A stretch of DNA of 64,000 bases from an uncultured Pseudomonadota bacterium. Lineage in GTDB: Bacteria > Pseudomonadota > Alphaproteobacteria > Rs-D84. The notes beneath the pieces were generated by a model. It saw only the letters and a program-made list of their open reading frames with translations, was not told where the DNA came from and did no database searches. Where the stretch lies: the NCBI GenBank assembly GCA_947303585.1, contig CAMYYT010000001.1, positions 18,008 to 82,007 on the forward strand, given 5' to 3'. The position numbers and the translations under genes were made by a program. This document shows, piece by piece, positions 58,344-63,778 of this stretch; positions within the stretch are counted from its first letter, which is position 1; every line of letters begins with the position of its first letter.

Positions 58344-58388
58344 AAATTCCACCCTTGGGGGTGGGGCCCACGAAGTGGTAGTGGGGAC
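58344..58388 (+). repeat. GC-rich two-hairpin element, copy A
   Basis: AAATTCC, then CCACCC-ttgg-GGGTGG, then CCAC-gaa-GTGG, then a G-rich tail. Homologous to 61796-61840. Confidence 0.6.
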
Positions 58389-58477
58389 AAAAAAATAATC
58401 ATCACCCAACTTCATTTTTCTCTTTCTTTATTTTTGATTGTATGATAAAATAAAGACAAAGTATATGGAGAAAGGGG

Positions 58478-61400
58478 ATGAAAAATATCGTCAAAACCGT
58501 TAGTTTACTAACAATAGTTTCTTTGATTCCTGCGGCTTTCGCTGCTACATCACGTGTCGGCGTTACGAACAAGGCGTCTGCACGGTTGCCGTCGATTGCG
58601 GGGCATATTTTGTCTGGTGGCACAACCACGACAACCACGACTGCGACAACGGCGTCTTACTATGGCGCTGCTGATTGTGTTGAAAAATACGAAGATTGTT
58701 TGCGTGCTGACGATGTTTGTGGTTCTAATTTTGAAGAATGTACAACTAACGTTTTGCTTCATGCCCAAATGCCAAAATGTTCGAATATTTTGTATCAATG
58801 TTCGGCTGCGGGGGTTCAACAGTTATTTGGGACATCTGCAATAACGGCTCTTTCTACTGTGGCGTCTGACGGTTATGTCAAGGATGACAAAGGAAACAAT
58901 ACAACCGAAGTGGCGGAATATATGTATCCACTTAAAAATTCAGAATTGAATAATTTGATTGCTGGTGCAAAAGAAGGTAACAAATTAACCAAAGAACAAT
59001 GTGTTAAACGTTATACAAATTGTTTACAACGTGATGATGTCTGCGGTGAAAATTTTGAATTATGCACAAGCGACAGGGAATTTAAAAAACAAGCGGTCCT
59101 TTGTGATTCAACATTTGAACGTTGTCCAACAGATGCCAAACGTGAATTATTTGGTTCTACAGAGGCGGCGGCAAGTTTAAAACCAGCAGCAAATTCTGAA
59201 AACAACTACAACAGATTAAGAACACTTATCGAAGACGGGCGTGCGTATGCGGTTGGTAATGCGGTAAAAACTTGTAACAAAGTTGTGAAAAATTGTTTTG
59301 TTAATGCGTGCAGCAAAAATCCTTTCCGCTGTGTCGAAGGGGTAAGTATTGCACAGATAAATACTGCAGATTTTCTTGGAACTGGAACAAGTGCTATTAA
59401 TACCGAAGATATTGATATGACAGAAACCCAAGACGCAACGGCAGTTCGTAAATGGTTAAAGGGTCAATGCCGCGATACAATTGGTTCAAATAAGTCTTGT
59501 CACATGGTGTATCGTGAAAAGAATAATATTTCAGAATCTGAATTGATGAATACAGAATTTCAAGAAGAAGTATTTAATCTTGCATATTCTGACAAAACTG
59601 TTCAAGATGCTATACAGGTGCAAATGCAAGAAAATATCAAAGTTTTTGATACAAATGCGAAAAATGCATGTGTGGAAACTATAAAATCTTGCGCAATGCG
59701 TTCTTGTGGTGGCGGTTTGGGGTCTGTGTGTTATAAACAGGCAAGATACAGCACATCGTCAACAACGATGCCTGCAACTTTCACAAACAATCTTACTAAC
59801 ACTACCAGCACAATTAATATGACAGCAACCGCGATAAATGACAACGGTGTTCATATCAATGGTGATAACACATATGGTGATATCGAAGCGGGTTGTTCAG
59901 CAATTGTTAACGCGGATCCAAATTGTCAATATGCTGCAACCGCATCATCCTCAGATGGATATACATACAATTATACACGAAATAATACATTTTCAACATT
60001 GTTCCCAAAGGGCGGTTCTTTGGCACAAGACCCGATTGGTGCGATTGGAAAATTGAATGCGTTGTTGGCAACATCATATAATGACGCCGCAATTGAAAAA
60101 ATGAAAAAACAATGCAGAACAATCGCGCTTTCTTGCGTTGAATCTGTCTGTGGCGAAGATTATATTAATTGCTATCGTAACAGAACAGACATTGTTGCTG
60201 GCAAGGGTGGTTCTGGAACATATGCCACAAACACAAAGTTGGATAAAAGTATGAACAAGGTTGGTGGTGTTCTTGATTACAATATCGTTATTGGTTTGTG
60301 TATGAATACCGTTAAAAGTTCATCTGTGTGTGAAGAACACTTGAAGGTTGCAACAGCCGAATGGCGCAACAGTCAAGATGATAATAGTTGGGGTGATGCA
60401 AATTCAGTTGGCGAAAGCTGGTTGGGCGCAAATGCAACAAAAACTGATAAAGTTTTGATTGGTTGCCGTGCTAGTGAACAAAGTAAGAAAGGTTCAAATC
60501 TTAGTATTTTTGCCAAGAAAGATTGTAGCGATATGATGCCACCAGTTAATAATTCTTGTGATGGTGTAGCAAGTTTTGGTTGTACATACGACGAACCTGT
60601 GTATCAAGAACAGTCTGAATATGTGTTGGAAAATGGTGCGACAACTTTGTTCCAAGATTTATTGCGCGATGTTGAAATGCAGGCACAGATGTTGTATAAC
60701 GCGAAACTTACCAAAGAACAAAATATCTGCCGTAGTAATAACAATGGTGGTATTATGGGTAAGGGCGACAATGGTTCTACATTTATGTGGGTGAAATTAA
60801 ATGGTTCAAAGGTTCCAGGAAACTACCCAAGCCAAGGTTTGGCTTCGAACCAATTCACAGCGTCAAATGATTTGTATGGTTCGTTCTGCCGTGCGAAAAT
60901 TACTGTCCAATCTGACGATAAAGATATCCAAAATTTATTGGAAGATAAACAAACAGCTTATTTCGCAGTTGGTGATTCATTTACCTGTGGTTCATGGATA
61001 AGCGATGCCGATTTACGTAAAATTTCTGACACGGTTGGTAATCGCGCCCTTTGCCAAGAAGGCTATGGAAAATGGGTAGACGGTGAATGCAAAACAGATG
61101 GTGTTGCTAACCGTTCAACCAAAGAACATATCGCATACGCATGGGGTACAGTCGCGCCAATGTTGGCAGGTGGTGCTTTGGGCGTCGGCTTAACCGAATC
61201 TGGATTATTAGCAGGCCTGACTGCAAAATCCAATGGCGGTAACACACAGAAGCAAAACAAAACGTTGTGTTCAAAATACGCTGCTGCTGCTGAAACACCA
61301 GGTGATGCACAACAATCAAATCTTGATCTCGCAAAGCAGTATTGTGAAAAAGTTTATTCTAGTTCTGCAAAAGAGTGTGAAGATATTTCTGGGAACAACA

Positions 61401-61699
61401 CGGCCACGGCCAAGAAAATTAGGATTGCCTGTGATGAAGCTAGTGATAAAGATACTTGGGGAACAACAAAGGAAGAAAAAGGTCTTGGAACCAGAATTGC
61501 TGTTCCGCTTGCAACCGCTGCTGTTGGTGGTGCATTGGGTGGTGGTATAACTGCTTCGGTTATTAAACAAAAGAAAGAAAATATTAAAAACGAAGCTGCT
61601 CAAAAATGGATGGATGAAATCGGTGAACATATCCAATGTTATTTGGGAACCGATGAATTGGGAACATACGGCGACGTAGTATCCATTGAATTAGATTAA
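58478..61699 (+). CDS. Giant secreted cysteine-rich protein (1073 aa) with two C-terminal Gly-rich hydrophobic segments
   Basis: GGAGAAAGGGG SD. Signal peptide ..LIPAAFA|ATS. A poly-Thr run. More than 50 Cys, including a duplicated module C-x3-Y-x2-CL-x2-DDVCG-x-NFE-x-CT. I recognise no family. Confidence 0.7.
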   Translation: MKNIVKTVSLLTIVSLIPAAFAATSRVGVTNKASARLPSIAGHILSGGTTTTTTTATTASYYGAADCVEKYEDCLRADDVCGSNFEECTTNVLLHAQMPKCSNILYQCSAAGVQQLFGTSAITALSTVASDGYVKDDKGNNTTEVAEYMYPLKNSELNNLIAGAKEGNKLTKEQCVKRYTNCLQRDDVCGENFELCTSDREFKKQAVLCDSTFERCPTDAKRELFGSTEAAASLKPAANSENNYNRLRTLIEDGRAYAVGNAVKTCNKVVKNCFVNACSKNPFRCVEGVSIAQINTADFLGTGTSAINTEDIDMTETQDATAVRKWLKGQCRDTIGSNKSCHMVYREKNNISESELMNTEFQEEVFNLAYSDKTVQDAIQVQMQENIKVFDTNAKNACVETIKSCAMRSCGGGLGSVCYKQARYSTSSTTMPATFTNNLTNTTSTINMTATAINDNGVHINGDNTYGDIEAGCSAIVNADPNCQYAATASSSDGYTYNYTRNNTFSTLFPKGGSLAQDPIGAIGKLNALLATSYNDAAIEKMKKQCRTIALSCVESVCGEDYINCYRNRTDIVAGKGGSGTYATNTKLDKSMNKVGGVLDYNIVIGLCMNTVKSSSVCEEHLKVATAEWRNSQDDNSWGDANSVGESWLGANATKTDKVLIGCRASEQSKKGSNLSIFAKKDCSDMMPPVNNSCDGVASFGCTYDEPVYQEQSEYVLENGATTLFQDLLRDVEMQAQMLYNAKLTKEQNICRSNNNGGIMGKGDNGSTFMWVKLNGSKVPGNYPSQGLASNQFTASNDLYGSFCRAKITVQSDDKDIQNLLEDKQTAYFAVGDSFTCGSWISDADLRKISDTVGNRALCQEGYGKWVDGECKTDGVANRSTKEHIAYAWGTVAPMLAGGALGVGLTESGLLAGLTAKSNGGNTQKQNKTLCSKYAAAAETPGDAQQSNLDLAKQYCEKVYSSSAKECEDISGNNTATAKKIRIACDEASDKDTWGTTKEEKGLGTRIAVPLATAAVGGALGGGITASVIKQKKENIKNEAAQKWMDEIGEHIQCYLGTDELGTYGDVVSIELD

Positions 61700-61721
61700 T
61701 ATTTTCAAAAAATAAAAAAAA

Positions 61722-61751
61722 ACAGGTTGCCTTTCCGCAACCTGTTTTTTT
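61722..61751 (+). terminator. Rho-independent terminator after the Cys-rich gene
   Basis: ACAGGTTGC-ctttcc-GCAACCTGT (9 bp) followed by T7. Confidence 0.85.
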
Positions 61752-61795: not shown

Positions 61796-61840
61796 TAAAT
61801 TCCCCCTTAGGAGGGGTGGCACGGAAGTGCTGGGGGATGG
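61796..61840 (+). repeat. GC-rich two-hairpin element, copy B
   Basis: AAATTCC, then CCCCT-tagg-AGGGG, then GCAC-ggaa-GTGC, then the tail TGGGGGATGG. Confidence 0.6.
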
Positions 61841-62955: not shown

Positions 62956-62979
62956 AAAACGCCCGTTCGGGCGTTTTTT
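62956..62979. terminator. Bidirectional terminator between lpxD and the convergent Cys-rich gene
   Basis: AACGCCC-gttc-GGGCGTT flanked by A and T runs. Confidence 0.8.
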
Positions 62980-63778
62980 ATTTCGGACAAACTTCTAATA
63001 ATCCGTGTGTTGTTTGTATTTCATCGTTTATATATACTGTGATATCGCGTTGCATACCGTCTGTGTAATTATACACAAAAGGTTTTTCAGCAAACAATGG
63101 TGCGCGTTCATATATATCAAAGAACGGTTCCAACAGAGATTCAAACCATTGACGATTTTTGCAAAGACATGCATTTCGAACATCTGCGACCATTTGACCA
63201 GTAACGCCATTTGAATAACTGTGTGCGATTTCATCGTCGTTCATAACCATACAACGTGACGCCACAGCAAATTCGTTAGCATCGTCTTTCAAGAATTGAT
63301 AAACGGCTGCATCACTTGCGCCTTTTTGACGCATCTTGTAAATGATTCCTTCGCTGCAACAGGCGCGTGAAGCGTTCATCAAAATTTTATATCTTTCAAC
63401 CAATGGCGCCATTGCTTCGTTATCTGCATTGACATCGTAATTGGAATATATTGCATACAAAACATCGTCTTCGCGGACAGGATTCATATGCGGAGAACGC
63501 GGAAACGAAGCCGTTTTATACACAGGCTTTTTATACCATATTTCACATTCAGCCATCGAAGTAAACGGACAAACGGATGAATAGCCACACGAAGTATCGC
63601 AAGTTTCAACTGGTTCAGGTTCAACATATTGTGGTGCCAAGATTTCTACTTTGTCGACTTCTTCTTCCAAGACAACAGGTGTTAATTCACAATCTTTGCC
63701 CACACATTCAGACGCGTTCGCACAATTTGCACTAAACGCAATAGCAATAAATGCCAAAAAAGAAATTTTATTTTTCAT
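62978..63778 (-). CDS. Secreted cysteine-rich hypothetical protein (266 aa, 13 Cys)
   Basis: Signal peptide MKNKISFLAFIAIAFSANCANA. Cys clusters ECVGKDC, ETCDTSCGYSSVCP, ACC and NACLC. No known family. Confidence 0.6.
   Translation of the reverse strand: MKNKISFLAFIAIAFSANCANASECVGKDCELTPVVLEEEVDKVEILAPQYVEPEPVETCDTSCGYSSVCPFTSMAECEIWYKKPVYKTASFPRSPHMNPVREDDVLYAIYSNYDVNADNEAMAPLVERYKILMNASRACCSEGIIYKMRQKGASDAAVYQFLKDDANEFAVASRCMVMNDDEIAHSYSNGVTGQMVADVRNACLCKNRQWFESLLEPFFDIYERAPLFAEKPFVYNYTDGMQRDITVYINDEIQTTHGLLEVCPK

Follow-up and report, generated by a model that had tools for sequence, protein, structure and literature searches.

The gene at positions 58478-61699 (+ strand) of the window, a 64,000-nucleotide stretch of contig CAMYYT010000001.1 from an uncultured alphaproteobacterium of the order Rs-D84, codes for a 1073-amino acid (aa) Cys-rich protein best explained as a lineage-specific, Sec-exported and largely alpha-helical product in which nearly all of the Cys residues would be committed to intramolecular disulfides. 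The gene is intact, single-copy, under strong purifying selection and core to one bacterial family. In its product, repeated helical modules stapled by Cys residues form the body together with the conserved alpha/beta domain that comes after them, and at the C-terminus a hypervariable head with disulfides of its own lies between two Gly-zipper segments. The second of these zippers forms, with the 44-aa tail that follows it, a C-terminal module with which two to four further secreted, Cys-rich proteins also end in every genome of the family, and discrete cassettes of the protein, the head foremost, exist as many old alleles reshuffled between strains. On balance, if only just, these sequence features lead us to favour a membrane-tethered, disulfide-bonded and exposed envelope protein equipped with recombining cassettes.

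Integrity and distribution of the gene

An earlier note, made from the letters of the window alone, had placed an open reading frame (ORF) of 1073 aa at these coordinates, and this was recovered intact with a start, MK(N/H)I(V/I)K, common to all homologues. Comparison with the two syntenic strains represented by loci L020 and L021 gave a ratio of non-synonymous to synonymous substitution rates (dN/dS) of ~0.09 across 580 body codons, and 42 of the 44 Cys residues were conserved in at least 85% of 39 homologues, 35 being invariant. Every database copy is labelled 'hypothetical protein', and beyond this absence of annotation nothing spoke for a chance ORF or a decaying pseudogene, a proposal of negligible probability that is refuted by the dN/dS value, by the invariant Cys residues, and by stop-free ORFs in ~90 sampled genomes and in 237 species.

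When a sample of the order comprising 121 genomes (110 of high quality) was surveyed, one full-length stop-free copy was present in 89 of the 110 high-quality genomes, and all carriers fell within a single family made up of Enterousia and its sister genera, namely 80 of the 81 genomes of the window's genus plus most of the sister genera; no carrier was found in the sampled genomes of the order's other five families. A class-wide sample returned the gene only from the window's genus, and a scan of one genome per GTDB species returned 237 carriers. These carried the names Candidatus Enterousia (sp., avicola, intestinigallinarum, scatequi and excrementavium) or uncultured Alphaproteobacteria or 'Rickettsiales', and were sourced from the rumen and from yak, sheep, goat, deer, horse, chicken, rabbit, mouse and the human gut. 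The window's assembly amounts to 852 kb at 74% completeness, with relatives of 0.7-1.1 Mb, sizes that agree with the literature, in which Enterousia (order Rs-D84) is characterised as fermentative, with a genome of <1 Mb and neither a respiratory chain nor standard uptake transporters (PMC12306168). A full-length relative of 38% identity was also encountered in a bin labelled 'Bacteroides fragilis isolate ... cleanbin' (locus L067, CAVGNU010000002.1); it resembles those of Enterousia metagenome-assembled genomes, and the bin is probably mislabelled or contaminated.

Domain architecture

The earlier note had recognised no family, and database searches led to the same result, with no significant Pfam, NCBIfam or PDB sequence match for either the single sequence or the profiles. 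Scans of Pfam and NCBIfam with the whole protein and five fragments yielded sub-threshold noise only (Cel124_C at E=0.003-0.012, HIG_1_N, TCR and MSG), neither the single sequence nor profiles A1 and A3 retrieved anything from the PDB sequences, and Foldseek searches conducted with the full model against PDB and BFVD, and with a model of aa 696-892 against PDB, gave best E values of 0.2-1.6 at template modelling (TM) scores of <0.2.

The AlphaFold2 (AF2) model generated from the 39-sequence alignment had a mean predicted local distance difference test (pLDDT) score of 66 and a predicted TM (pTM) score of 0.40. Residues 1-59 were disordered, the body from residue 60 to ~650 was mainly helical (pLDDT 75-85), a mixed alpha/beta domain occupied residues ~700-880, both zippers were of low confidence or disordered, the head was a three-helix unit, and the tail consisted of a long helix (residues 1017-1046) followed by three short beta-strands (pLDDT 76-84). 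When the most conserved domain (aa 696-892) was modelled on its own, the pLDDT was 71, with the core at 80-89. The features of the protein are as follows.

58478..58543, + strand: signal peptide, aa 1-22 (MKNIVKTVSLLTIVSLIPAAFA, then ATS), of the type cleaved by signal peptidase I (SPase-I)
58544..58615, + strand: conserved basic N-terminal peptide of the mature protein, aa 23-46 (ATSRVGVTNKASARLPSIAGHILS)
58616..58654, + strand: Thr-rich linker, aa 47-59, which differs in length and sequence among homologues
58655..58852, + strand: six-Cys module A1, aa 60-125 (C67, C74, C81, C88, C101, C108)
58979..59176, + strand: six-Cys module A2, aa 168-233 (C175 ... C216), tandem duplicate of A1
59273..60331, + strand: three units of the form C-x6-C-x4-C-x6/7-C ... 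C-x9-C, aa 266-341, 398-483 and 546-618, mostly helical by DSSP
59747..59842, + strand: hypervariable S/T/N-rich insert, aa ~424-455, column conservation 0.01
60398..60637, + strand: variable cassette, aa 641-720, with 4 Cys
60638..61117, + strand: conserved alpha/beta domain, aa 721-880, conservation 0.8
61130..61219, + strand: Gly-zipper segment 1, aa 885-914 (IAYAWGTVAPMLAGGALGVGLTESGLLAGL), AF2 pLDDT <50
61220..61492, + strand: hypervariable head between the zippers, aa 915-1005, three helices, with C931, C956, C967 and C985
61493..61564, + strand: Gly-zipper segment 2, aa 1006-1029 (RIAVPLATAAVGGALGGGITASVI), part of the shared C-terminal module
61565..61696, + strand: conserved tail, aa 1030-1073 (KQKKENIKNEAAQKWMDEIGEHIQCYLGTDELGTYGDVVSIELD), a helix and three short beta-strands with a single Cys at 1054

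The signal peptide proposed in the earlier note, with cleavage between MKNIVKTVSLLTIVSLIPAAFA and ATS, was confirmed: it has Lys residues in the n-region, a hydrophobic core and an A-x-A site with the cleavage motif AFA/A, and is kept in 39 homologues. It contains no Cys, and hence no lipobox. In the basic peptide that follows, residues A23, T24, R26, R36, P38, S39, I40 and A41 were invariant in the 39 homologues, down to 50% identity; AF2 assigned it a pLDDT of <50, and in-genome paralogs carry longer basic regions rich in R/S/T/A at the same position. The poly-Thr run to which the note had drawn attention, GGTTTTTTTATTA, lies at aa 47-59.

The tandem pair of modules that had been noticed earlier proved to be a true repeat: aa 67-124 and 175-232 align over 58 ungapped residues with 38% identity (pairwise E=7e-16), and profile-profile comparison of A1 with A2 by hhalign gave a probability of 99.2% (E=1.3e-19). 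At the DNA level the two modules are only 51% identical, with 40% at the third positions of codons, and each of the 39 aligned homologues has both of them; the duplication is therefore old, as had been surmised. The pattern of A1 is C-x6-C-x6-CG-x5-C-x12-C-x6-C ... LFGTS, with five of its six Cys residues invariant and C67 present in 97% of the 39 homologues, and the AF2 model of this module is helical with a pLDDT of ~80. Homology among the three C-x6-C-x4-C-x6/7-C units could not be demonstrated, the profile similarity detected by hhalign being weak (E 0.02-0.04). The S/T/N-rich insert is deleted in homologue P0006, and ~30-45 aa longer in P0008, P0009 and P0010. The alpha/beta domain is characterised by the motifs NNGGIMG, GSTFMWVKL, SNDLYGSFC and AYFAVGDSFTCGSWI, contains a Cys trio (C751/C804/C837) and a Cys pair (C859/C871), and is common to a small paralog at C8:281-1084 (contigs of the window's own genome are cited in this form throughout).

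Cysteine pairing and redox machinery

The note had put the number of Cys residues at more than 50, mostly in CxxC, CxxxC and longer spacings. In fact the protein has 44, and none of the 43 gaps between consecutive Cys residues is of two or three residues, the dominant form being C-x6-C, with 13 gaps, next to three each of C-x4-C and C-x9-C and two of C-x12-C. Cys pairs at a fixed helical spacing probably staple neighbouring helices, as judged by their i, i+7 periodicity and by the helical character of the AF2 model.

Counts of Cys residues in 120 homologues revealed a consistent parity. The head contains 2, 4, 6 or 8 Cys residues, an even number in all 120 despite the existence of 68 head types. 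That evenness has been maintained through such frequent replacement argues for pairing of the head Cys residues with one another, and hence for a head that resides in an oxidising compartment rather than in the cytoplasm. A textbook two-helix inner-membrane hairpin with a cytoplasmic loop was ruled out by the same even counts. By way of contrast, the number of Cys residues in the body (aa 23-890; 39 in the present protein) was odd in 119 of the 120, the tail had one Cys in 119, and the total for the whole protein was even in 118. Both members of the pair C859/C871 are missing together from 5 of 39 sequences, and the odd number is thus accounted for by the trio C751/C804/C837.

An odd body and a single tail Cys could be reconciled by a body-tail disulfide. 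Against such a bond, the relatives that possess only one zipper have an even number of body Cys in 65 of 83 cases (several of the odd exceptions being obvious signal-peptide mispredictions) and a lone tail Cys in all 83, the small paralog at C8:281-1084 has no tail and yet retains the Cys trio, and homologue P0068 has no tail Cys. The odd Cys of the trio and C1054 may instead be unpaired, or used between molecules. As a whole, the parity suggests intramolecular pairs within modules in preference to an intermolecular lattice.

A check for dsbA and dsbB, which the note had recommended, revealed in 3/3 genomes a DsbA-like protein that has the thioredoxin fold, a CPYC motif and, at its N-terminus, two membrane helices; in the window's own genome its gene is located as follows.

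C15:9908-10417 (locus L009, ORF 1195-2013): DsbA-like CPYC gene

Recombining cassettes

Close homologues exhibited 97-100% identity over most of the body, as opposed to ~40% in aa 921-960 and 12-17% in aa 961-1000, and other strains diverged sharply in aa 121-160, 281-500 or 641-720. Across the 120 homologues the bodies were at least 39% identical (median 63%), while the heads varied from 79 to 262 aa and fell into the 68 types at a threshold of at least 50% identity. The identity matrices for the body, the 641-720 cassette and the head conflict in their grouping. The head of P0001 groups only with that of P0006, and its body with those of P0002-P0005 and P0007; the head type of P0002-P0004 reappears on the 59-66%-identical bodies of P0008 and P0010; and the 641-720 cassette shares protein identities of 31-39% with P0007 and P0009-P0011, 70-73% with P0004/P0005, and 91-98% within its own type.

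Equivalent comparisons at the DNA level with the two syntenic strains gave identities of 93-99% over 10 kb upstream and the first two thirds of the gene, 77% at 60478-60777, 55-70% at 61078-61677, and again 98-99% in the downstream gene lpxD. The number of synonymous substitutions per site (dS) was 0.7-1.4 in the cassettes (0.7-0.9 for aa 641-720) as against 0.09 in the body, an 8-15-fold excess which indicates that the cassettes are old alleles moved by recombination rather than products of recent local mutation. This segmental recombination, the strongest signal in the analysis, speaks more for a variable, exposed protein of the contact or antigen type than for a static structural lattice.

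These data also bear on the proposal that the protein is a membrane-attacking device, or one for contact-dependent antagonism or fusion, the zippers of which would insert into the membrane of another cell with the head as the determinant of target specificity. Glycine zippers do serve in membrane insertion or translocation in Caulobacter CdzC/CdzD (PMC5380434) and in the type VI secretion system (T6SS) effector Tde1 (PMC10240207), and the host, with its tiny genome and no standard uptake transporters, is probably partner-dependent (PMC12306168). However, no immunity gene co-varies with the head, lpxD being 98-99% identical where the head is 55-70% identical, and the gene is a single-copy core gene set among housekeeping genes. 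In addition, the signal peptide is of the Sec type rather than a signal for type I, type VI or type VII secretion, and no toxin domain was detected in the Pfam and NCBIfam scans. We regard this proposal as very improbable.

The C-terminal module and membrane topology

Zipper 2 plus the tail aligned with the C-termini of three proteins of the same genome (alignment A3), and the resultant profile matched 1097 protein clusters at E<=1e-3, 401 of them at E<=1e-10. In the best 150 of the 1097 clusters the match was located at the extreme C-terminus of proteins of 69-1165 aa, and those clusters that were inspected comprised Cys-rich proteins with a signal peptide and unrelated bodies, each ending in a near-identical ~60-aa anchor of the form ...FNTARLASDLTAGVVLGTVGGVVSGVVIKKKQVEKGFDALHCTVGGQ..ADWGD.F.VGL. 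All 16 genomes of the family that were examined had between two and five copies each, whereas the other families of the order had none. Recurrence at the C-termini of unrelated bodies is the hallmark of a module shared for anchoring or sorting. The tail is its most constant part, residues 1041-1073 being 100% identical across 11 homologues that are 66-92% identical overall. Single-zipper proteins of the window's genome that share both anchor and tail are encoded at C15:17705-19540, C17:18860-20047 and C5:31541-33331 (loci L014-L016).

The two Gly/Ala-rich hydrophobic stretches reported in the earlier note were verified at aa ~889-910 and 1008-1029, with the four-Cys segment (C931, C956, C967 and C985) between them. 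A simple sum of the free energy of membrane insertion on the Hessa scale (dG) ranged from +4.5 to +5.2 kcal/mol across the family for zipper 1, and from +1.9 to +3.2 kcal/mol for zipper 2, for which the Kyte-Doolittle value was 1.5-1.9. Zipper 2 is the likelier membrane anchor of the two.

One topology consistent with these values is that of a type-I protein of the inner membrane, in which zipper 2 would act as a Sec stop-transfer anchor and the invariant tail would remain in the cytoplasm, bound to a conserved partner. Everything from the 860-aa body through zipper 1 to the head would then lie in the periplasm as a strut or scaffold between the membranes, and the mosaicism would represent recombination without surface exposure. 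This arrangement needs neither an unknown export route nor new machinery. It accords with the clearly greater hydrophobicity of zipper 2 (dG +1.9 to +3.2 versus +4.5 to +5.2 kcal/mol for zipper 1), with the sequence KQKKENIK that follows zipper 2 (KKKQ in single-zipper relatives), and with the single-zipper relatives themselves, whose even body counts (65/83) and lone tail Cys (83/83) are those expected of a reduced cytoplasmic tail. The loss of the tail Cys in P0068, the odd trio that the paralog at C8:281 retains without a tail, and the status of the tail as the most conserved part of the protein, as would be anticipated for a cytoplasmic interaction motif, point the same way, and the even head counts are compatible with the periplasm. 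Set against this, 68 head types among 120 proteins, drawn from reshuffled old alleles, would be unusual in a strictly periplasmic protein, and a disulfide between body and tail, which would place the tail outside the cytoplasm, is also in keeping with an odd body count and a single tail Cys. Moreover, the net charges of the flanks do not conform to the positive-inside rule, and the homologous 'zipper' of the paralog at C5:31541 (ATLVGAGTGGALGGLSGY) is too polar for a transmembrane helix. Taken overall, an inner-membrane type-I protein appears unlikely, if by no means far-fetched.

A second alternative, which we rate as less probable again, is an alpha-helical hairpin in the outer membrane formed by both zippers, of the two-transmembrane (2TM) glycine-zipper kind exemplified by SlyB, which would display the swappable head outside the cell while the stapled rod-like body and the tail remained in the periplasm, possibly locked by a disulfide from C1054 to the trio. 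Such a hairpin would explain why the most variable part of the protein is exactly the segment between the zippers, why the head Cys residues, in keeping with an oxidising compartment, are always paired, and why an odd body and one tail Cys sum to an even total in 118 of 120 homologues. Both zippers are poor Sec stop-transfer signals and could thus pass the inner membrane. In the paralog at C12:5253 a Gly-zipper stretch of ~45 aa is found inside a small C-terminal Cys-knot, and since both halves of the knot have to be on the same side, the stretch must either turn back as a hairpin or insert without crossing. There is also precedent, in that 2TM glycine-zipper lipoproteins occupy the outer membrane of Escherichia coli (bioRxiv 10.64898/2025.12.22.696046). 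Nevertheless, no hidden Markov model (HMM) of a glycine-zipper family matched the protein, a lipobox is absent, and no mechanism is known by which a folded domain of 79-262 aa with disulfide bonds could cross the outer membrane within a helical hairpin. Single-zipper relatives are unable to form a hairpin, and the mosaic cassettes at aa 121-160, 281-500 and 641-720 of a supposedly periplasmic body would be left unexplained.

The exposed, membrane-tethered envelope protein that we favour could be reached by the following sequence of events. Sec export would be followed by oxidation by the membrane-anchored DsbA-like protein, and the C-terminal module would then tether the product to an envelope membrane, either the inner via zipper 2 or the outer via a zipper hairpin, with the rod-like body and the head outside the cytoplasm. 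Exposure to a diversifying agent, whether phages, host antibodies or partner cells, would in turn imply a role in contact or adhesion, or in shielding, at the cell envelope, to which the basic N-terminal peptide on its Thr-rich linker and the alpha/beta domain would contribute the constant functional parts.

Several points weigh against this reading. We know of no pathway to the diderm surface for a Sec-exported, alpha-helical protein that is not a lipoprotein, although a secretin and a GspE/PilB-type ATPase are encoded in the genome, and mosaic recombination alone is no proof of surface exposure. Neither zipper is markedly hydrophobic, the simple dG sums being positive for both, and all four of their flanks are about equally basic, so that the charges give no orientation. 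The route of oxidation is incomplete, as homologues of both DsbB and VKOR were absent from three genomes of the genus. Finally, the neighbours of the gene are housekeeping genes (rluD and lpxD, with tatA or a PAP2 gene in other species) that offer no hint of function.

Comparison with known systems

Among exported proteins of the diderm envelope, SlyB, YfgH, OsmB, YiaD and the Rickettsia 17-kDa antigen likewise possess Gly/Ala-rich, GxxxG-like helices, and the 2TM glycine-zipper lipoproteins likewise set a helix pair beside a beta-containing domain; SlyB and YfgH are believed to form oligomers in the outer membrane (bioRxiv 10.64898/2025.12.22.696046). The present protein differs from the SlyB type in having no lipobox, in the disulfide-bonded domain of 79-262 aa that replaces a tight turn between the helices, in its 44-aa conserved tail, and in being ~7x larger by virtue of an 860-aa Cys-stapled body. 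When the whole protein was searched against Pfam, none of Rick_17kDa_Anti, Gly-zipper_Omp, Gly-zipper_OmpA and Gly-zipper_YMGG was matched at E<=1, and neither the C-terminal 194 aa nor the single-zipper anchor matched any Pfam glycine-zipper family at E<=10.

The earlier note had drawn an analogy with the disulfide-rich envelope proteins of Chlamydia. OmcB and OmcA are likewise exported, Cys-rich envelope proteins of a small-genome bacterium, and OmcB also has a basic N-terminal segment. The general idea fits the signal peptide, the conserved Cys parity and the DsbA-like CPYC protein. Homology, by contrast, was absent: OMP6 and OMP3 gave no Pfam match, and no counterpart was found among PDB sequences or folds, which leaves the comparison as one of analogy. 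The present protein is, in addition, mosaic and hypervariable, unlike OmcB and OmcA, and there was no indication of an intracellular life for its host, an uncultured gut bacterium.

The variant-specific surface proteins (VSP) of Giardia and the major surface glycoprotein (MSG) of Pneumocystis likewise combine large size, repeated extracellular Cys modules, a C-terminal membrane anchor and high allelic diversity. The Pneumocystis MSG family PF02349 scored E=1.2 and 9.8 bits against a cut-off of 22. Unlike either, the present protein has no CxxC, and its diversity arises by allelic recombination at a single-copy locus rather than by switching among gene copies. Cys pairs at a fixed helical spacing are also a feature of the CHCH proteins (twin CX9C/CX3C) of the mitochondrial intermembrane space; here the spacings are mainly x6, x4 and x12, with x9 occurring singly, in six-Cys and four-plus-two-Cys units, and neither a Pfam match nor homology to that family was found.

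The C-terminal module also invites comparison with the sorting signals of the GlyGly-CTERM/rhombosortase, PEP-CTERM/exosortase and LPXTG/sortase systems, in which a short conserved C-terminal module with a Gly-containing hydrophobic helix and a basic cluster is likewise common to several otherwise unrelated secreted proteins per genome. It differs from them by the further conserved tail of 30-44 aa after the basic cluster, and the NCBIfam sorting-signal models gave no match. Processing of the rhombosortase type was rejected, as Rhomboid (PF01694) was absent from genomes G000, G077 and G246 and present in 14/14 control genomes. Assignment as a polymorphic toxin of the contact-dependent inhibition (CDI) or Rhs type was likewise rejected, the variable head being internal, with no co-varying immunity gene and lpxD as the next gene.

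The locus and other Cys-rich proteins of the genome

The strong Shine-Dalgarno sequence noted earlier was verified as GGAG/AGGGG directly 5' of the ATG, and a terminator was located at the other end of the gene.

58467..58477, + strand: Shine-Dalgarno-like GGAG...AGGGG, read in the sequence upstream of the ATG
61716..61751, both strands: bidirectional intrinsic terminator directly 3' of the stop codon, with a 15-bp stem between A and T runs

Possession of its own strong terminator indicates that the gene is monocistronic. The downstream neighbour is lpxD in the present species group and in L013, while the context differs in L011 and L012. GC-rich hairpins, CCACCC..GGGTGG at 58349-58364 and CCCCC..GGGGG at 61802-61816, lie just beyond either end of the gene; each is followed by a second GC-rich stretch, and they were read as minus-strand terminator-like sites. 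Further copies of the downstream element's 19-nt core lie on contigs C13 and C8; apart from this core, a search of the genome found the hairpins to belong to no multi-copy repeat family. A convergent ORF of 266 aa (62978-63778, - strand) has a signal peptide and 13 Cys residues but no Pfam match, and is kept at the matching position in the syntenic strains L020 and L021.

The core C-x6-C-x6-CG-x2-F/Y-x2-C is present in at least ten other large secreted paralogs of the same genome, six of which cluster on contig C12 (2716-5247, 5253-7364, 7814-10129, 21375-24167, 24169-26694 and 26782-29952), with others at C17:216-2858, C4:40964-43366, C11:21959-24319 and C5:9779-12262. These are proteins of 700-1050 aa with long basic N-terminal regions rich in R/S/T/A and repeated modules of the six-Cys core. 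Several end in a small Cys-knot, and in those at C12:5253 and C12:21375 a Gly/Ala-rich hydrophobic insertion of 45-110 aa lies within the knot. Pfam searches with seven paralogs and neighbours, which included the core-module members C12:21375-24167, C12:5253-7364 and C4:40964-43366, returned nothing. A rough tally of ORFs that reach 250 aa, encode a signal peptide and contain 3.5% Cys or more came to 23, which take up 6-7% of the coding capacity. Giant secreted Cys-rich ORFs were also recorded at C10:19702-26622 (- strand; 2306 aa, 91 Cys) and C2:44162-50146 (- strand; 1994 aa, 149 Cys), the latter built, unlike the 1073-aa protein, from CxxC-containing repeats. The genome contains both a secretin and a GspE/PilB-type ATPase: the single secretin gene, at C3:11035-11535 (547-aa frame), is immediately followed by two small signal-peptide ORFs with 9 and 12 Cys residues (C3:11962-12420 and C3:12417-13049), and the ATPase gene lies elsewhere, at C18:7893-9104.

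Significance

For the biochemist, the system poses the puzzle of an anaerobe that has a DsbA-like protein and many disulfides, yet neither DsbB nor VKOR and no respiratory chain. It also provides a handle on the question of whether alpha-helical glycine-zipper anchors carry large extracytoplasmic domains in the diderm envelope. Were the outer-membrane hairpin to be correct, the protein would represent, together with its single-zipper relatives, a new design of diderm surface protein that is neither a beta-barrel nor a lipoprotein, and it may then be a partner-contact device of an obligately dependent gut bacterium. In practical terms, the invariant parts could be used to raise antibodies or design probes with which to find and sort cells, and the head alleles could serve for strain typing.

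Candidatus Enterousia and related bacteria occur widely in the guts of ruminants, horses, birds, rodents and humans. They are uncultured, with genomes of <1 Mb and no standard nutrient transporters, which makes the manner of their contact with their surroundings the central question. The gene described here is the one conserved single-copy member among their Cys-rich secreted proteins, is found in nearly every genome of the family, and combines an invariant anchor with cassettes that recombine in the manner of surface antigens. The best-supported reading is that it constitutes a core, lineage-defining component of the means by which these tiny-genome gut bacteria face the outside.

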